64,000 bases of DNA, taken from the NCBI GenBank assembly GCA_905211265.1, contig CAJMAC010000004.1, forward strand, positions 41,976-105,975. Reading direction: 5' to 3'. Of the stretch, positions 12,985 to 42,995 are shown one piece after another. The position numbers and the translations under genes were made by a program. The DNA is from an uncultured Eubacteriales bacterium. GTDB taxonomy: Bacteria > Bacillota_I > Bacilli_A > RF39 > UBA660. Position 1 is the first letter of the stretch; every line of letters begins with the position of its first letter. The notes under the pieces were generated by a model. It was given only the letters and a program-made list of their open reading frames with translations, was not told where the DNA came from and ran no database searches.

Positions 12985-12993
12985 ATTATACCA
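12985..12993 (-). promoter_or_regulatory. Extended -10 promoter element for lemA
   Basis: The minus strand reads TGGTATAAT (TGnTATAAT) about 20 nt upstream of the lemA RBS AAAGGAG. Confidence 0.45.
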
Positions 12994-13041
12994 CACTTTT
13001 TTATTTTTTATAAATTATTATCAGAACTCAAAAAATATATT

Positions 13042-13126
13042 AGTTTTGAGATTACAAGCTCAAAACTTCTTTTTAATAACCTTGGGTATTAAAAAGCCTT
13101 GGAATAACTTTTAAGTTATGAAAAGG
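13042..13126 (-). repeat. Triple-hairpin intergenic element, copy A (18 nt after the valS stop)
   Basis: Three adjacent hairpins: AGTTTTGAG(13042-50)/CTCAAAACT(13059-67); CTTTTTAATA(13069-78)/TATTAAAAAG(13087-96); CCTT..ATAACT/AGTTAT..AAGG(13097-13126). Aligns end to end with 20204-20288 and 37336-37425. Confidence 0.85.
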
Positions 13127-13144
13127 AAAAAAGAAATAGACGCG

Positions 13145-16461: not shown

Positions 16462-16660
16462 AAAAAAAGATAATTCTATCCAAAGGACGAATTATCGTGG
16501 TACCACCTTAATTTATACTTATTACTGATAACGCAAGCGAATGCGGTAATTCAACTCACAAGCAACCTTCAATTAAATTAATCTAGAAACTTTCACCATA
16601 TTTTCCTCGCTATAAGATTATTAGATAATTTACTCCTCTTGTTCTTCGTCTTTTAATATA
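16462..16660 (-). promoter_or_regulatory. T-box riboswitch leader, Val (GUU) specifier
   Basis: The minus strand carries the T-box sequence AAGGTGGTACCACG (plus 16496-16509). The terminator is GATAATTC/GAATTATC (16469-16496) followed by T7. Stem I elements include AGCGA and GGTGAAAG. The specifier loop reads GAAG-GTT-G just before the closing stem CTTGT. Confidence 0.85.
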
Positions 16661-20129: not shown

Positions 20130-20203
20130 TTTATCATACCTTTCATAGTAATTATATCATTTTAACTAGTTTTAGTAAATAATTTTATTAAAATTTATAA
20201 TTT

Positions 20204-20288
20204 AATTTTGAAACTTTAAGTTCAAAATTACTTTTTAATAACCTTAGGTATTAAAAAACCTTGGAATAGCTTTTTAGTTATGGAAAGG
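20204..20288 (-). repeat. Triple-hairpin intergenic element, copy B (13 nt after the PFOR stop)
   Basis: AATTTTGAA(20204-12)/TTCAAAATT(20221-29); CTTTTTAATA(20231-40)/TATTAAAAAA(20249-58); CCTT..AAGG(20259-88). Hairpin 1 differs from copies A and C by two compensatory pair changes. Confidence 0.85.
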
Positions 20289-20301
20289 AAAAAAGAAAGA
20301 A

Positions 20302-23300
20302 TTAATCTTCTTTCCTATTATCTTGAACTTTATAATAATTATATCTAGATATTGCCCATTCTTTTTGATTATCTAGTATTTTGTCACAATCTTTTGGATT
20401 TATTTGTTTAAGATTTGCATATCTATTTTCAGTCATTAAAAACTCATCATATTTATCAAAGTTTGGTTTGGAATCCATAGTTAATTCTTTAATATCAGGA
20501 TTATATCTAAATGTTATAAAGTAACCACATTCTGTTGCTAAATAAGCATTTGTTTGGCTATGTTCCATTCCTTGTTTTATACCATGCTCAATACATGGAG
20601 AGTATGCAATTATTAATGATGGTCCATTGTGGTTTGTTGCTTCTTTTAATACTTTTAGGTATTGTTCTTGATTATAACCTATATTAGTTTGTGCTACATA
20701 AACATTTGGATAACACATAGCCATTCTTGCTAAGTCTTTTTTATAATTCTTTTTACCATTGGAAGTAAATGATGCAATTGAGCCTAAATTACTTGATTTT
20801 GATGATTGTCCTCCGGTATTAGAGTATACTTCGGTATCTAGTACTAAGATATTTATATTTTCATTGGTAGATAATACATGGTCTAATCCACCGAATCCTA
20901 TATCATAAGCAAATCCATCTCCACCGATTATCCACATTGATTTTGGTACAATATAGTCTTTTAATTTTTCTAGATATGGATGAGAATTATAATCTATTTT
21001 ATCTTTTACTTCTTTACATATTTCATAATTATCCATATTATTTATCCATTTTTTAAATAATGGTGTCATATTATCTTCCATATATTTTTTTATTTTATTT
21101 CTTTTTACATTTATTCCTGTTTTAATACCTAATCCATACTCAGAATTATCTTCGAATAAACTACTTGCCCAAGGTATATTATATGCGATTGATGGCATAC
21201 TTGCACTATATATGGAAGAACATCCTGTAGCATTAGCAATTATTATGTTATCTGAAAACATTCTTGTAAGATTAGTTAAATATGGTGTTTCTCCACAACC
21301 TGCACATGCTCCAGAAAACTCAAATTTTGGTTCTTTCATGCTTATGCTTTTTACATTTAATGTAGGTAATGCTTTTTCACTATTTAAGTTGTTTTTTACT
21401 AAGTAATCAAATTCTTGATTAGTAAATTCTTCTTTATTATATGGTTTCATAGTTAAGGCTTTTTTACCTAATTTACCAGGACAAGCATTTACACATACTC
21501 CACATCCTGTACAATCTTTATATGAAACTGATACTACATAGTTTGTATCCTTTGGTAAGATACTTGGTATAGAATCAACAGCATTATTATTTTTATCTAT
21601 AACATATGGTCTTATTACGCCATGAGGACATGCAAAGGCACATTTTCCACATTGAATACAATTTTCTTTTATCCAACAAGGTACATTTTCTGCAATTTCT
21701 CTTTTTTCTTTATCTGTTGTATGTTTAACTATTCCTTGCTTTTTATCTAGAAATGCACTTACTGGTAAGTTATCTCCATGTAATTTATTTATTGTTTCAT
21801 AGAAATCTAATTCTTCGTTTGGTATTTTTAATTTTGACCAAGTACTATCTACTTCGATTTCATTAATATATTTATCTGATACTTCGACTATTTTATTATT
21901 GATATCTACTATTTTTTGTCCTTTATGTTTAAATCTAGTTTCATTAGTTTCTTTCATTATTTGTTTTACTTTATTAATTGGCATAATACCTATTATTTTA
22001 AAGATACATACTTCCATACAGGTACTTATTTTATTTTTAAGTCCTAATTCATTTGCTATTTTATAGGCGTCTATGGTAAATAATTTTAAGTTTTTATCAG
22101 ATATTATTTTCTTTATTTTATTAGGTAATGAGGTAATTAATTCATTACTATTTAGATTGGTATTTAAAAGTACTATGCCATTATCTTTGATATTATCTAA
22201 GACATCATATTTATAAATGTAGGTATCTTTGGAGATTACTACTAAGGATGGATTTTCTACATAATAAGATGACATTATTGTATTTTTACTTATTCTTAAG
22301 TGACTTCTGGTTACTCCACCAGACTTTTTAGAATCATATTGGAAGTATCCTTGGACATAGTTTTTAGTATGATTTCCTATTATTTTTATTATATCTTTGG
22401 ATGTTGATACCATTCCGTCTGAACCAAAACCATAGAATAAGTATTCTATATTTCCTGTATCTATTTTAAAGTTATTATCTACTTTTAAACTTAATTTTGT
22501 TACATCATCATTTATACTTATAGTAAAGTTGTTTTTATTTTTTTCTTTTAAATTTGTGTATACTGCCATAATATCTCTTGGGGTAGTATTTTTAGAAGAT
22601 AGTCCGTAGCGTCCTCCAATAATTTTTATTTCTTTATCTTTAAGAGCATTTACGATATCTAAATATAGTGGTTCTCCAATTGAACCTGGTTCTTTTGTTC
22701 TATCTAATACTGCAATATTTGTTACTGTTTTAGGTAAAACTTTTTGTAAATATGTGGAAGAAAATGGTCTATATAGATGTACTTCGATTAATCCTAAATC
22801 TTGGTCATTTAGATAATTAAGTAATTCTTTTATGGTATTACATACACTTCCCATTGCTACAATTACATATTTTGCTTTTTTAGAACCATAGTAATTAAAT
22901 GGTTTATAGTCTGTTTTTTCTAATTTATTTATTTTTTCCATATAGTCTGATACGATATCTGGTACATTTAGATAGTCTGTATTTCTTGACTCTGTATGTT
23001 GAAAATAGATATCTTCATTTTCTGCAGTTCCTCTTGTGTTGGGATTTTCATTATTCATTTGTCTATTTCTAAAGTTATCAAGGGCTTTTTTATCTATCAT
23101 TTTTTCTATTCTGTTATAATCCATTAATTTTATTTTATTTATTTCATGACTTGTTCTAAAACCATCGAAGAAATGTACAAATGGTAATGATGATGATATT
23201 GCTGAAAGGTGTGCTACTGCAGATAAATGGTATGCTTCAGTGGGATTAGAAGACGCTAACATACATACTCCAGTTTGTCTTACGGCATATACATCTTGAT

Positions 23301-26861: not shown

Positions 26862-28181
26862 TTACACTTTTTTTAATAATATATCATTTATGGTATCAGA
26901 TATTGCACTTATATACTTATCTTTTTCCTGGTCTAATATTTCCATATCTTTTGAATTTGATAGATAACACATTTCAAGTAGGTATGCTTCTGCTCCTATG
27001 TTAGAGTTATAATAATCGTTACCTTCTTGTTCTTCGTTTCTATCATCAACATATGCACCAGTCATTATTCCGCCAGTTTCTCTAATCATATATAAATAAC
27101 TAGATAATGTGGTTATATCATAAGGTGTACGATTTTTATTTCTTGCTTCTTCGGCAGATGCTTCGATTTCTTTCTCGGTAAAGTTATGGGTATATACTCC
27201 ACTGAATACTCTATATGTTGATTTATTTGAATATGTAAGAGTAGTATTTTCAGTTATTTTTTTAACTAATTCTTTAGCAAAGTTATAATTAATCTTACTT
27301 GGAGTATATACTTCTACTCCATGAACTGATGGTGCACTACTATTTAGATGTAATGAAAATACATATTTGGCATATACTTCGTGAGATATTTGTGCTCTTC
27401 CACCTTTACCATAATAGTTAATTACTTTATTATTTGTTATGGTATTTTCATCCCATGTTAATTTTACTTTTAATCCTAACTTTTCTAAACTTTCTTTTAA
27501 AGATAAAGCCATATCCATAGTATAATCAGTTTCTTTTTTACCATTTACTACTGCTCCGGGATCCATTCCTCCATGTCCTGGATCTATTACTACATCATAT
27601 ATTTCAGCATCTTTATTTTCTGTTACATCAAACATTAGTGTTTGATAATCATTATTTGAATTAATTGATATTTTATTATTATATTTGCTTAATGTATAAT
27701 ATGTTGTCTCAGGATATGTTGTTTTATTATCTAATGAATAGTATTTATATGATATTTCTTCTTCATTTTTATCATTTGTAGTTTTATGTGTTGTTCTAAT
27801 AAATAGATAATATTTACCTGGGGTTATGTCATCAAGATATAATCCTTCGTTAATAAGGTCTGATAACTTAAATGATACTGTATTAATTTCTTTATCAGTA
27901 GTTATTTTTATAGTCGTAAATCTTTTTTCTGGTGATTCTTTTTTTTCTAATTTTAAGTCTTTGTTGTATAGTACTAGGTCAATATCATCATATTCTAGAT
28001 TATCTACGGTTAGAGAACCTTCGATATTTAGATGTGTACCATATACTATATATTTTGCTATTTCTGCTTTTGTTACTTCTGGGGTTAATGGTGGTGTTTT
28101 ATCTTTGGTTAATTCTACATATGCTACATAACCTCCAAATCCTAGAAATATTAAAATAATTATTATTATAAATTTTTTCAT
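26862..28181 (-). CDS. N-acetylmuramoyl-L-alanine amidase (Amidase_3), membrane-anchored
   Basis: N-terminal TM. The C-terminal catalytic domain has VVIDPGHGGMDPGAV and SLHLNS motifs. The start abuts the sufB stop. Confidence 0.85.
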   Translation of the reverse strand: MKKFIIIIILIFLGFGGYVAYVELTKDKTPPLTPEVTKAEIAKYIVYGTHLNIEGSLTVDNLEYDDIDLVLYNKDLKLEKKESPEKRFTTIKITTDKEINTVSFKLSDLINEGLYLDDITPGKYYLFIRTTHKTTNDKNEEEISYKYYSLDNKTTYPETTYYTLSKYNNKISINSNNDYQTLMFDVTENKDAEIYDVVIDPGHGGMDPGAVVNGKKETDYTMDMALSLKESLEKLGLKVKLTWDENTITNNKVINYYGKGGRAQISHEVYAKYVFSLHLNSSAPSVHGVEVYTPSKINYNFAKELVKKITENTTLTYSNKSTYRVFSGVYTHNFTEKEIEASAEEARNKNRTPYDITTLSSYLYMIRETGGIMTGAYVDDRNEEQEGNDYYNSNIGAEAYLLEMCYLSNSKDMEILDQEKDKYISAISDTINDILLKKV

Positions 28182-37294: not shown

Positions 37295-37335
37295 ACTTTA
37301 TTTATAGATTAATTATTAGAATATAAAATATACTA

Positions 37336-37425
37336 AGTTTTGAGATTAAAAGCTCAAAACTATTTTTAATAACTTATTTATAAGGTATTAAAAATCCTTG
37401 GAATAACTTTTAAGTTATGGAAAGG
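37336..37425 (-). repeat. Triple-hairpin intergenic element, copy C (11 nt after the ABC-F stop)
   Basis: AGTTTTGAG(37336-44)/CTCAAAACT(37353-61); ATTTTTAATA..TATTAAAAAT(37362-95) with a 6-nt insertion that lengthens the stem (CTTA/TAAG); CCTT..AAGG(37396-37425). Confidence 0.85.
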
Positions 37426-37436
37426 CATAAATAATT

Positions 37437-39305
37437 TTACTCAACTTTATTTGCTAAACTTTCCCATTCATTAGTTTTTTCTTCAATTTTATTAGTTATA
37501 TTTAATATTTCTTGTTCTATTTCTTTAGCTTTTGCTACATTCATATAAACTTCTTTTTCTAATAATTTATTGTTAAATTTTTTTAAATCATTATCTAATA
37601 ACTCAATTTCTTTCATTATTTTATTTAACTTACTTGTATTATCCACAGAACTGTTGATAACTTTAGTTTTCTTATTTTTAGTGTCTTCTTTTAAGATAGG
37701 TATGTCTACTTTTCTTTTTTCTAAATATTCTTTATATCCATAGTTATATAATTTAGCTTCTTTATTTTCAAACACTAATAATTTATTACAAACATTATTT
37801 ATTAAATATCTATCATGACTTACCATAATTATTGTTCCATTATAATTAGTTAATATTTTTTCTATTGTATCTTTGCTTATTATATCTAAGTGATTTGTTG
37901 GTTCATCTAGAATAAGTAAATTAGGCTTATTATTTAGTATTTTACATAAACTTAATTTTACTTTTTCTCCCCCAGATAAATCATTTATTTTTTTAAATAC
38001 ATCTTCCCCCGTAAATTCAAAACTACCTAATAGAGTTCTTATTTCATTTGGAGTCATACTGGGATATGCTTTATCTATTTCCTCATATACTGTATTGTTG
38101 TTATCTAGATTTTCAAAATTTTGAGAGAAATACCCTATACTTACTCTATCTCCATAAATATATTTACCACTTAACGGATGAATTAAACCTGTCAATGTTT
38201 TTATCAAGGTACTTTTACCTATGCCATTTTCTCCGATAATACCTAATTTATCTTGTCTTTCTAAGTTAAATGATAATTTACATAATTCTTTATCATATCC
38301 TATACTTAGATTTTTTACTTTTAATACATCTCTATAACTATTTTCTTCAGTTTTAAGATTTATTTTAAATGTTTTGGTATTAGATTTATTTGGTTTATCT
38401 ATTTTTATCATTTTTTCTATTTGTTTTAATTTAGACATAGCCATTTTTGCTTTAGTTGGTTTATATCTAAACCTATCTGCGATATATTGTAGTCTTTTTA
38501 TTTCTTTTTGTTGATACTCATAATCCTTTAATTGTTTTTCATAATCTTGTTCTTTTTGTTTAACAAACGAACTATAATTTCCTACATATCTTTTTAATTC
38601 TCCATACTCTATATCATATATTATATTACAAATATTATCTAAAAACATCCTGTCATGACTTACTAAGATAATACTTTTTTTATAATTTTTTAGGTAATTT
38701 TCTAACCATTCTATACTATTTATATCTAAATGATTGGTAGGTTCATCTAATATCAATAAATCAGGTTTAGATAATAACAATCTTATTAATGATAATTTAG
38801 TTAACTGTCCTCCGGAGAATTCATTTAATAATTTTTCTTTATCTATATCAGTAAACCAAAATTTTTTTAATGCTATTTCATATTCTTTTTTATAGGTATT
38901 TCCCCCTTTATAAATGTATTCATTTTGTAAATCATTATATTTTGTTAAAATTTGTTCACTATATGAACTACTTAGTTTTTGTTCTAGGGAGTTTAATTTA
39001 TTTTCTATTTCTAAGATATCACTATTAGATTCTTTGATATAGTCAATCATTTTCATATTTAGATTATCTGTAATATTTTGTTTTACATATCCTATTTTAA
39101 AGTCGTTACTACTTTCTATTTTTAAATCATCATAACCATCTGATAAGGTATATTCATTAGTTATTGCTTTAAGCAAAGTTGTTTTTCCACAGCCATTTCT
39201 TCCTACAATACCTATTTTATCATTATCCTTTACATAAAAATTTATATCTTCTAGAATGGTATTTGCTCCAAGGGTTACACTACCATTACTTATTTTATAA
39301 TACAT
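37437..39305 (-). CDS. ABC-F family ATPase (two ABC domains, no TM, C-terminal coiled coil; Uup/YfmR-like translation factor)
   Basis: Two Walker A motifs (GRNGCGKTT, GENGIGKST), two signatures (FSGGQLTKL, LSGGEKVKL), and an inter-domain linker. The ATG at 39305 follows GGTGA; the tracked start is a TTG. Confidence 0.9.
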   Translation of the reverse strand: MYYKISNGSVTLGANTILEDINFYVKDNDKIGIVGRNGCGKTTLLKAITNEYTLSDGYDDLKIESSNDFKIGYVKQNITDNLNMKMIDYIKESNSDILEIENKLNSLEQKLSSSYSEQILTKYNDLQNEYIYKGGNTYKKEYEIALKKFWFTDIDKEKLLNEFSGGQLTKLSLIRLLLSKPDLLILDEPTNHLDINSIEWLENYLKNYKKSIILVSHDRMFLDNICNIIYDIEYGELKRYVGNYSSFVKQKEQDYEKQLKDYEYQQKEIKRLQYIADRFRYKPTKAKMAMSKLKQIEKMIKIDKPNKSNTKTFKINLKTEENSYRDVLKVKNLSIGYDKELCKLSFNLERQDKLGIIGENGIGKSTLIKTLTGLIHPLSGKYIYGDRVSIGYFSQNFENLDNNNTVYEEIDKAYPSMTPNEIRTLLGSFEFTGEDVFKKINDLSGGEKVKLSLCKILNNKPNLLILDEPTNHLDIISKDTIEKILTNYNGTIIMVSHDRYLINNVCNKLLVFENKEAKLYNYGYKEYLEKRKVDIPILKEDTKNKKTKVINSSVDNTSKLNKIMKEIELLDNDLKKFNNKLLEKEVYMNVAKAKEIEQEILNITNKIEEKTNEWESLANKVE

Positions 39306-40688: not shown

Positions 40689-42995
40689 TTAAATACTAAT
40701 TTTTTCTAACTCTTTTATTTTTATTTCTGCTTTATTTTCTATAATTGCATCAATAATATTATTTTCTATTTTATTACTTATTATTTTATCTATTCTTCTT
40801 GCTCCAAAGATATTATAATTAGATTCTGTTACAATATCATTTATTACTTTATTAGATATTAATACTTTTATTTTATCTTTATATTTATTCTTAGTATTAT
40901 TAATTTTATTTTTTATTATTTTAGATATTATTTCTTCTGATAAATTATTAAATATAATGATATCATCAATTCTATTAATAAAGGATACTGATAATTCATT
41001 TTTTAAACTATTAATAATATTGTTTTTATTTAGTTCATTAAATCCTACTTTATTTTCATTGTAACCAATATTTGAAGTCATAATTATAATATTATTATCA
41101 AATCTTATTATATTTCCTTTGCTATCTTTTATTTTTCCATAGTCTAATATTTGATATAAAAGATTTATTACTAAAGGATGTGCTTTTTCTATTTCATCTA
41201 GTAATATTATAGCATTTGGTTTATTACGAATTTCTTCGAGGATATTTTTATTATCATCATAACCTACATATCCTGGAGAAGAACCCATTATTTTATTTAT
41301 TGAGGTTGCATCTGAATATTCACTCATATCTAATCTTATAAAATTATCTAATCCTACGGTATAGTTAGCAAATAGTTTTGATAACATTGTTTTTCCTACT
41401 CCAGAAGATCCTACGAATAAAAGAGAATTTACTTTATTATCTTTATATCCTAGTTTTATTTTTTTTGTTATTTTCATTAATTTATCTATTGCTTCATCTT
41501 GTCCAATAATTTCTTTTTTTAAGTTATCTTCGATAGTTTTTATTGTTTTAGAATTATCTCCTAGTATTTCATAGATAGGAATATTTGTTTTGTTATTTAT
41601 TACTATTGCTATATCTTCCATTGTTACTTCTTTCACATCTAATTTATAATTAGTTTCTAATTCATTTAATGTTGAAGTTAAATTAGTTTCTTCTTTTCTA
41701 TATTGATATGCTTTTTCTATATTATTTTCTATTATTAAACTATTCTTTTCTTTATTTATTTTCTTTAATGTTTCTTTTATTTTCTTTATATCTTTTGTTT
41801 GTTTATTTTCTTTTATACTTACTTTGGAACATACTTCATCTAGAATATCTATACATTTATCTGGTCTTGACCTATCATAGATATATTTTTCTGATAAGTC
41901 TATTATAGATTCTACTATTTTATTATCTATTTTTACGTGATGATATTTTTCATATATTGGTTTTAATTTTAATAAAATATCTTTTGTTTCTGATAATGAT
42001 GGCTCATTTACGGTTATTTTTTGAAATCTACGGTCTAGGGCGGAATCTTTTTCTATAAATTTTTTATATTCATCATATGTCGTTGCACCAATACATCTTA
42101 TTTTACCTCTTGCTAAAGCTGGTTTTAATATATTGGAAGCATCTATGGCTCCTTCTGCTCCACCTGCCCCTACTAAGGTATGTATTTCATCTATAAAAAG
42201 TATTATGTCATCATTATCTTCTAGTTCTTTAATTATTTTTTTCATTCTTTCTTCAAATTCTCCACGATATTTAGTTCCTGATACTGCACTGGCCATATCT
42301 AAAGATATAATTTTTTTATTACTTATTTTATTTGGTACTTGTTCTTTTTCAATTAGTCTTGCTAATTCTTCGACTATAGCTGTTTTACCTACTCCGGCTT
42401 TTCCTATTAGTATAGGATTATTTTTAGTTCTTCGACATAATATTTCTATTAGTCTGTTTACTATATTTTCTCTATCAATTACAGGGTCTAATTCATTATT
42501 TTTAGCTTTTTCTGTTAAGTTTGTACCTAAGTCTTCGACTAATAATTTTTTATTTCTTCGATTATTTTTCTTTATTAGTCTACTATTAAATTCATCATAT
42601 AATTCTTCGACATCTATTCCCATACCTATTAATATTCTTATGGCTATTCCTTCGCCTTCTTCTAATAAGGAAGAAAATAAATGTTCTGTTGTTACTTCTC
42701 CATTATTATTATCTTTGCTATTTACTATTGCATTTTCTATTACTTTTTTAAATAATGGTGTATATAAAAAACATTCACTCTTTTTGCTACCTGTACCTAC
42801 TACTTTTATTATTTCTTTTTTAAATTTATCATAGGTTAATTCATAGTTTTTTAATCTACTTGATAAGTTTGTTTTACTTTTTAGTATTGATAATACTAAG
42901 TGTTCTGTTCCTACATAAGGATGATTTAGTTCTTGCATTTCTTCTTTGGCTTTTACTAAAATTCTTTGTGCTTCTTCGTTAAAGTTTCCTATCAT
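40689..42995 (-). CDS. clpC: ClpC-like Clp/Hsp100 AAA+ chaperone ATPase
   Basis: 768 aa. Clp_N repeat (HPYVGTEHLVLSIL), AAA-1 Walker A GKAGVGKTA, AAA-2 Walker A GSSGVGKT. Short middle region. Confidence 0.85.
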   Translation of the reverse strand: MIGNFNEEAQRILVKAKEEMQELNHPYVGTEHLVLSILKSKTNLSSRLKNYELTYDKFKKEIIKVVGTGSKKSECFLYTPLFKKVIENAIVNSKDNNNGEVTTEHLFSSLLEEGEGIAIRILIGMGIDVEELYDEFNSRLIKKNNRRNKKLLVEDLGTNLTEKAKNNELDPVIDRENIVNRLIEILCRRTKNNPILIGKAGVGKTAIVEELARLIEKEQVPNKISNKKIISLDMASAVSGTKYRGEFEERMKKIIKELEDNDDIILFIDEIHTLVGAGGAEGAIDASNILKPALARGKIRCIGATTYDEYKKFIEKDSALDRRFQKITVNEPSLSETKDILLKLKPIYEKYHHVKIDNKIVESIIDLSEKYIYDRSRPDKCIDILDEVCSKVSIKENKQTKDIKKIKETLKKINKEKNSLIIENNIEKAYQYRKEETNLTSTLNELETNYKLDVKEVTMEDIAIVINNKTNIPIYEILGDNSKTIKTIEDNLKKEIIGQDEAIDKLMKITKKIKLGYKDNKVNSLLFVGSSGVGKTMLSKLFANYTVGLDNFIRLDMSEYSDATSINKIMGSSPGYVGYDDNKNILEEIRNKPNAIILLDEIEKAHPLVINLLYQILDYGKIKDSKGNIIRFDNNIIIMTSNIGYNENKVGFNELNKNNIINSLKNELSVSFINRIDDIIIFNNLSEEIISKIIKNKINNTKNKYKDKIKVLISNKVINDIVTESNYNIFGARRIDKIISNKIENNIIDAIIENKAEIKIKELEKISI

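Follow-up and report, generated by a model that had tools for sequence, protein, structure and literature searches.

The REP/BIME (REPIN) elements of Enterobacteria and Pseudomonas are RAYT (Y1)-mobilised repeats with reported effects on termination and on mRNA 3' ends (PMC3337134; bioRxiv 10.64898/2026.03.23.713779). The element analysed here, three copies of which (A, B and C) lie in a 64,000-nt stretch of DNA from an uncultured, low-GC gut member of the Bacilli, resembles them in being built of short imperfect palindromes, in occurring in tens of extragenic copies that typically lie just 3' of genes, and in being lineage-specific, present in both orientations and a substrate of recombination. 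It differs from them in that its alignment contains no GTAG-type 5' tetranucleotide and its genome no RAYT/Y1 gene, its inverted partners stand 1-3 kb apart around genes rather than in short-spaced doublets, its unit comprises three different hairpins instead of one hairpin or an inverted doublet, its stems are A+T-rich, and its host is a member of the Bacilli.

A second group of described repeats comprises BOX and RUP of the pneumococcus and bcr1-bcr18 of Bacillus cereus, which are modular intergenic repeats of ~100-150 nt that are predicted to form stable stem-loops. Compensatory changes in some of the bcr groups have been argued to reflect a conserved RNA fold, and the mobilising agent of such repeats is often unknown. 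RUP and bcr1 end in terminal inverted repeats and are flanked by target duplications, whereas the present element shows neither terminal inverted repeats nor a clear target duplication, and its likeness to BOX, RUP and bcr is one of description. To our knowledge, these families offer no counterpart of the hairpin-tip motif with a conserved C.T mismatch that is common to hairpins of our element. A MITE is equally unlike it in that the ends of the element are not complementary (5' end CCTTTTCATAAC, 3' end CTCAAAACT).

Two functional classes also bear comparison. As in an intrinsic terminator, the last hairpin of the element (Hc) has a T-rich tract behind it, and in copies A and C the two score as terminator-like whichever strand is read; a terminator-like hairpin with its T-run is also always found next to the element. 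Unlike an intrinsic terminator, the element has three hairpins, conserved mismatches and a repeated sequence, the Hc of copy B fails the terminator scan, and in a congener the terminators native to these genes do without it. Integron attC sites share with it imperfect hairpins, a structure conserved more than the sequence, conserved unpaired bases and a location at the boundaries of variable genes, but the copies that bracket variable genes here are inverted, not direct, and most copies follow housekeeping genes.

Anatomy and placement of the repeat

The stretch analysed, called the window throughout, corresponds to G000:C4:41976-105975 of a genome bin (G000) of 1.35 Mb with 24% G+C, which comprises 37 contigs (cited as C with a number) and is 89.5% complete. 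BLAST together with two rounds of nhmmer found 22 copies of the element in this bin, and a covariance model built from the nhmmer copies found 23-26. All of them are intergenic, none lying within a long ORF, and two contigs (C20 and C1) end inside a copy. When metagenome contigs were scanned with a pattern, 34 stretches came up, all of them from human-gut assemblies. The covariance model matched 34 times in 30 sources (metagenome stretches together with strain contig L024), and the metagenomes added 26 distinct variants, bringing the total to 48 distinct sequences. The housekeeping stretch L057:1-8466 (ULNY01013494.1) carries ileS, a SpoIVB-like peptidase gene and a ZIP transporter gene along with two copies of the element; it has no DNA similarity to the genome bin and is probably part of the ~10% of the genome that the bin lacks.

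The element is ~100 nt long and forms three hairpins. On the sense strand the order is a terminator-like hairpin with its T-run (H0, outside the repeat), then Ha, Hb and Hc, and then the promoter of the next gene. Ha is composed of CCTT, an internal loop TTC, ATAAC, a loop, GTTAT, an internal loop TCC and AAGG, while Hb reads CTTTTTAATA, C, C, loop, G, T, TATTAAAAAG and Hc reads AGTTTTGAG, loop, CTCAAAACT. Variants of the three hairpins are combined as a mosaic among the copies. The tip of Ha is hypervariable yet always paired down to loops of 0-4 nt, one copy (C19_15552) carrying a perfect 14-nt palindrome (ATAACAATTGTTAT) at this place, and the extensions found in Hb are themselves palindromic inserts. 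A gathering search of the window against Rfam 15 matched no family to the element, and a permissive search with copy A gave best scores of 13.7-15.5 bits (E 4.4-6.5), none of which reached threshold. Of the curated RNA families, just one turned up in the window, a T-box leader at 16480-16655 on the minus strand, whose 102.4 bits exceed the Rfam threshold.

Copies A, B and C lie just 3' of three minus-strand genes, valS, the pyruvate:ferredoxin oxidoreductase (PFOR) gene and an ABC-F gene, respectively, and the gene-sense strand of all three is the minus strand of the window (Table 1). In copies of sense orientation the element begins right after the T-run of H0, a gene-specific hairpin that often overlaps the stop codon. 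Orientation is biased, with 17 of the 22 copies co-oriented with the upstream gene and five inverted. The first-pass annotation, made on the window alone, had proposed to probe the structure on a valS or PFOR 3'-UTR transcript; because the element directly follows the T-run of a terminator, and because the five inverted copies run against the upstream gene, the label of a 3'-UTR is doubtful. On its other side, copy B is followed by the promoter-like site of a carbamate-kinase-like gene, whose -10/RBS block is conserved in congener G002, which is without the element. A T-run followed by CCTTT was considered as a target motif and rejected, since this word is common inside the genes of so A+T-rich a genome.

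A consensus scan classed the Hc of copies A and C as terminator-like on both strands and did not flag that of copy B. In the reversed copies on C8, C12 and C19, the stop codon is followed at once by Hc' and its T-run, and no further terminator is present; at C19:14020-14058, an Hc' on its own closes one gene.

Table 1. Positions in the window of the three copies, of the hairpins of copy B and of neighbouring signals
Feature	Position	Strand	Details
Copy B, three-hairpin element	20198..20295	-	covariance model R1, G000:C4:62173-62270, 88 bits; nhmmer
Hc of copy B (hairpin 1)	20204..20229	-	AATTTTGAA / TTCAAAATT; pairs 79-108 and 86-101 A-U, against G-C in A and C
Hb of copy B (hairpin 2)	20231..20258	-	conserved C.T mismatch; tip ACC-TAA-GGTT; basal U.G on sense strand
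Ha of copy B	20259..20288	-	outer stem CCTT/AAGG; 3x3 pyrimidine loop TCC/TCC; inner stem ATAAC/GCTAT; one A.C mismatch
H0 and T-run of PFOR gene	20289..20315	-	GGAAAGAAgattaaTTCTTTC + TTTTTT; stop TAA 20302-20304 in loop; outside repeat
Promoter-like site of carbamate-kinase-like gene	20151..20179	-	TTTACT-17-TG-TATAAT; downstream of copy B
Copy A, behind valS	13036..13133	-	R1, C4:55011-55108, 106.6 bits; Hc at 13042-13067
Promoter-like site of lemA	12985..13014	-	downstream of copy A; conserved in G002
Copy C, behind ABC-F gene	37330..37432	-	R1, C4:79305-79407, 96.1 bits; Hb lengthened by palindromic insert

Compensatory change and conserved irregularities

On the plus strand of the window, the Hc of copy B is formed by AATTTTGAA (20204-20212) and TTCAAAATT (20221-20229), while the Hc of copy A and that of copy C (37336-37361) are formed by AGTTTTGAG and CTCAAAACT. 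Relative to A and C, two G-C pairs have become A-T in copy B, all nine pairs are retained (9/9), and one G-C pair remains. At the base of Hb (20231/20258 in copy B), copy A has a C-G pair and copy C an A-T pair, while copy B has C.A, which on the gene-sense strand is a U.G wobble. A rereading of the three copies thus bore out the arm sequences, the preserved 9-bp stem and the three states of the basal pair as first described. The double substitutions had also been taken as changes that befell copy B, and here only the retained pairing stands: among the 20 copies complete at Hc, A-U is found at pair 79-108 in eight and at pair 86-101 in 11, copy B being a carrier of both, and its Hc type is shared with the copies at C4:22264 and C5:27885. 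The two A-T pairs are inherited subfamily characters, and the subfamily of B differs from that of A and C. Copy B has the least stable fold of the family, at -10.1 kcal/mol and z = -0.46 where the family averages z = -3.8, and the structure of lowest energy predicted for it fails to recover Ha and Hb. Three of its pairs are not Watson-Crick (an A.C in Ha, and U.G at 42-75 and 88-99), while all three are Watson-Crick in the orthologous copy of strain L045; the C.A basal pair of Hb is polymorphic, being C-G in L045.

Covariation was assessed on the 22 genome copies (alignment A2) with the three-hairpin structure of 34 pairs and 500 shuffles. Paired cells made up 96.3% of the pair cells, against 86.8 +/- 0.6 in shuffles; change on both sides was found at 21 of 34 pairs, against 8.5 +/- 1.7, and in 71 cells, against 21; and the covariation score was 0.266, against 0.117. 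On all five measures, none of the 500 shuffles attained the observed value. When the 3' partners were slid by 1-3 columns as a control, pairing dropped to 33-56% and the score to 0.025-0.071. RNAalifold independently found Hb and Hc, and the covariation persists on the 48 distinct copies. The pairs that switch include 51-66 (A-U in 12 copies, G-C in 9), 79-108 (G-C 11, A-U 8), 86-101 (A-U 11, G-C 8), 88-99 (U-A 9, C-G 8) and 47-70 (U-A 16, A-U 6). The covariation test on more copies that the first-pass annotation had suggested was therefore strongly positive, and since the signal stands far above both shuffled and slid controls, the hairpin potential is actively kept by compensatory change.

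When events were counted by approximate parsimony on a tree built from all 48 sequences, ~30 double changes were found to preserve a pair, 13 single changes to pass via wobble, 31 changes to break a pair and six to repair one. Stem-disrupting changes are thus about as frequent as compensatory ones (31 against ~30), an equality that had been named at the outset as speaking against a selected fold; yet the covariation is supported, the breaks are clustered in a few decaying copies and in Ha, and the double changes still lie far above what site-independent change leads one to expect. Change of this kind is also visible between strains at orthologous loci. Where the flanks are 95-100% identical, pair 22-29 has gone from T-A to C-G behind three different genes, and pair 81-106 has gone from A-T to T-A in a further copy. 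In the diverged ortholog of copy A in L024, ATAAAC/GTTTAT replaces ATAAC/GTTAT. Single-sided changes between strains are mostly wobble intermediates, and some orthologous loci, such as C14 versus L055 and copy B versus L045, differ by clusters of multi-site changes.

The best conserved columns of the alignment are not paired ones. The C.T mismatches, at columns 52/65 in Hb and 87/100 in Hc, are conserved at 94.6%, against 89.7% for the internal loop of Ha, 89.3% for paired columns and 75-78% for the loop tips, and the Hb mismatch columns are conserved in 45-46 of the 48 copies. The mismatch sits one pair below the tip in both hairpins, and on the antisense strand it becomes G.A. Hb and most Hc follow a common design, in which a stem is followed by R, a C.T mismatch or bulged T, C-G and the loop. 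A scan for this tip design found 60 hairpins in the genome bin and 10-18 in shuffles. The tip word GCCTAAGGTC (RCC-loop-GTY) occurs 12 times in the bin and 0-2 times in each of 60 relatives, while its reversed control occurs 0 times in the bin. These irregularities show that a particular shape is kept, beyond a mere palindrome, and point towards recognition of a defined structure.

Among the hits of the tip-design scan are further families of small repeats, at C7 (three copies), C2, C10, C3 and C33. In the C7 family (27620-27760, 38144-38284 and 40900-41040, outside the window), a terminator-like hairpin and its T-run precede the hairpins ACTCTAAGCCTAAGGTCTTAGAGT and AGATTAAGCCTTTATAAAAGTCTTAATCT, whose tips are GCC...GTC as in Hb and Hc. 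Related units of the C7 type lie at C2:104000-104130, C10:15630-15770, C3:115270-115380 and C33:4090-4200.

Three approaches to the strand and the molecule were tried and set aside. Wobble counts over the 48 copies gave 19 G.U on the sense strand and 11 A.C, which are wobbles on the other strand, but many of these are inherited and the counts are not independent. Folding energy does not discriminate either, since the two strands are alike in it (mean z -3.8 and -3.6), and orientation relative to replication is uninformative because GC skew and gene strand are confounded and reversed copies are reversed for both. The present data would fit a fold that acts as RNA or as DNA, and on either strand; covariation itself cannot separate RNA, single-stranded DNA and selection on the element's own spread.

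Distribution among species and strains

Neither the 100 other genera of the family nor two congeners (76% and 74% complete) gave a match to the covariance model. BLAST over 40 relatives found nothing outside the species, an exact-pattern scan of a species-genome collection gave 0 matches, and phage and plasmid collections contained no match to the element. In congener G002, valS and the PFOR gene have terminators of their own that are directly followed by the conserved -10/RBS of the next gene, with no element between; compared with G002, the element is extra DNA between terminator and promoter in this species.

Within the species, the copies behind valS, the PFOR gene and hsp20 do not change position among the strain contigs inspected (7, 8 and 10 listed, respectively), are present in all of them and are nearly invariant, and no clean pair of a filled and an empty site for a solo copy was found among those contigs. 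With its copies fixed and nearly invariant and no clean empty site, the family is therefore not visibly mobile now. A whole-genome search for a Y1/RAYT transposase (PF01797) gave a best score of 13.3 bits (E = 0.07), below the cut-off, in a bin that is 89.5% complete; the same search was positive in 7 of 14 reference genomes used as a control. Comparisons with G002, of L085 with L076, and of C6 with L047 revealed no clear target duplication, the sites being too diverged or carrying extra DNA. One strain contig of the valS locus, L024:1-1314, comes from a diverged strain of a Hadza sample; its valS product was called as 811 aa, not 847, and its intergenic DNA 3' of the element is unlike that of all other strains.

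Strain comparisons identified the copies as homology patches where strains differ by gain, loss or rearrangement of variable genes. Where copies surround such genes, the reversed ones tend to stand to the right, as partners of a copy in sense orientation. On C19, two DnaJ-like paralogs lie between a sense and a reversed copy, with a lone Hc' between both genes. These are tandem DnaJ-domain paralogs of ~470-490 aa (C19:12390-15641), and the lone Hc with its T-run stands between them as a terminator. In L032:900-3030, two inverted copies bracket a gene for 491 aa, while the corresponding region of the bin (C6:32900-33110) has only a fused Ha hairpin, CCTTTTCATAACTTAAAAGTTATAAAAAGG (C6:32981-33023), which a deletion between the 16-nt palindromic Ha cores of two copies can explain. 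Copies bracket PDDEXK_2 (Rpn-like) genes in L058 and L048, and rearranged junctions were found at copies in L047, L033, L058 and L048. A locus between peptidase U32 and holin-like genes (L076-L085, 3000-4500; G000 C1:98351-98426) has four strain alleles, namely an empty one, one with a DUF3800 gene, one with two small genes, and one with a terminator, the element and a PDDEXK_2 gene; L076 carries the empty allele and L085 a non-empty one. The L076-L085 loci have a second variable slot, before cysS.

We considered PDDEXK_2 proteins as the mobilising enzyme, since their genes adjoin copies at five loci of other strains, but rejected them because the neighbouring copies belong to different subfamilies and the genes are multi-copy in genomes of three other genera of the family where the model search found no copy; they are kept here as neighbours only. 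The genome bin encodes a 297-aa PD-(D/E)XK protein (C6:86978-87871, minus strand) with a weak match to PDDEXK_2 and the repeat GIEQGIEQGIE near its C-terminus. It has four to five paralogs, two of them with in-frame stops, and resembles the Rpn (YhgA-like) nucleases, which current work regards as toxic, antiphage proteins whose four-residue repeats vary (PMC10400941).

Readings of the hairpins

We read the element as a REP-like structured repeat private to its species. Copy B would be a member of a young, species-confined three-hairpin family whose fold serves as a recognition structure, most likely in the form of DNA hairpins, a reading to which we give even weight for and against. A repeat of ~100 nt would have spread into the gap that separates the intrinsic terminator of one gene from the promoter of the next, and its fold would be recognised by a putative trans-acting factor of the lineage, most likely one that acts on hairpins of DNA, either single-stranded or extruded, like those of REP/BIME-type elements. 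The covariation would then mainly record selection among propagated copies, that is, the founders of subfamilies. As side effects for the host, Hc and the T-rich arm of Hb, which from the opposite side resemble an intrinsic terminator, may form a two-way stop with the upstream terminator, and the copies may act as recombination patches. The number of copies, the ~30 independent double changes, the shape-specific conservation, the lineage restriction, the presence of both orientations, the mosaic subfamilies and the structural variation between strains at copies speak for the repeat family. Against it stands that no mobilising enzyme, terminal inverted repeats, clear target duplication or clean empty site within the species was found; and the orientation bias and the fixed site just behind terminators would suit a role in the host no less well. 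The early claim that the fold itself is what is conserved holds for the pairing, which is kept with covariation far above the controls, while the selection behind it may be on the element's propagation.

A host-selected RNA element is possible, though we are inclined to doubt it. Transcribed by read-through or from the other side, the element would act as a back-up or two-way terminator and insulator between neighbouring transcription units, or as a block to exonucleases at 3' ends, and its covariation would stem from selection at the RNA level. Hc with the T-rich arm of Hb was scored as a terminator on both strands in copies A and C. The constant site, directly after a terminator T-run and before the next promoter, the predominance of copies co-oriented with the upstream gene (17/22), the reversed copies on C8, C12 and C19 whose Hc' and T-run follow a stop codon, the lone Hc' at C19:14020-14058, the wobble intermediates that prevail among single-sided strain changes, and the fixation and near invariance of copies across strains are all consistent with such a role. 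However, the orthologous spacers of G002 have terminator and promoter and no element, no known RNA family matches, and no wobble asymmetry names a transcribed strand (19 versus 11, not independent). A terminator role also leaves the C.T mismatches, the pyrimidine loop and the need for three hairpins unexplained, and copy B, short of most G-C pairs and folding like shuffled sequence (z = -0.46), is nevertheless fixed in the species.

The common tip admits a wider reading, which we regard as unlikely. The free stem, the RCC-loop-GTY cap and the obligatory C.T mismatch or bulged T would together make a private 'hairpin word', the cis-site of a hairpin-directed recombination or mobility system that would need neither a Y1 transposase nor an integron integrase. 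This word would be used by the three-hairpin element and by at least three smaller families, and would mark terminator-proximal boundaries where variable genes are exchanged, including Rpn-like PD-(D/E)XK defence genes.

A mutational origin, by intrastrand template switching or by gene conversion between copies, in which one arm is rewritten from its partner or whole hairpins are exchanged, would keep the palindromes perfect without any selection on the fold, and is in our view quite unlikely. The process is documented: a single template-switching event can create and maintain a perfect stem, and with it substitutions that look compensatory (PMC8794818, PMC5453318). The first-pass statement that double compensatory substitutions are not expected without selection was accordingly too strong, as template switching during replication makes them in one step (PMC8794818). 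The hypervariable Ha tip that always pairs, with loops of 0-4 nt and the palindrome ATAACAATTGTTAT of C19_15552, the palindromic extensions of Hb and the clustered differences between C14 and L055 and between copy B and L045 would fit such events, and the mosaic of Ha, Hb and Hc suggests conversion between copies. Template switching would, however, erase mismatches in stems, while the C.T mismatches and the 3x3 loop of Ha are best conserved across all subfamilies, and these irregularities argue against pure homogenisation of palindromes. Single wobble intermediates are seen, as stepwise compensation predicts, and conversion accounts for the spread of variants, not for their origin. Double-stranded sites for a dimeric DNA-binding protein, such as a nucleoid-associated factor or a regulator, whose fit to both half-sites would make the arms co-vary, are very unlikely, for although conserved words stand at fixed places (CCAAGG and the RCC...GGTY tips) and the copies lie in intergenic DNA beside promoters, the stems differ freely among subfamilies and among the three hairpins with pairing kept, which indicates a fold and not half-sites, conserved mismatches are meaningless in duplex DNA, and no candidate protein was found.

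Returning to the reading as a species-confined repeat family, we find that a bacterium represented only in gut metagenomes has a structured repeat family of its own with real covariation. The covariation proves that the hairpins are kept; neither action as RNA nor service to the host follows from it. As practical markers the copies are of direct use, because they break assemblies and sit at the junctions of strain-variable genes. Finally, the conserved mismatches and the common tip offer a handle for finding the factor that reads the hairpins.
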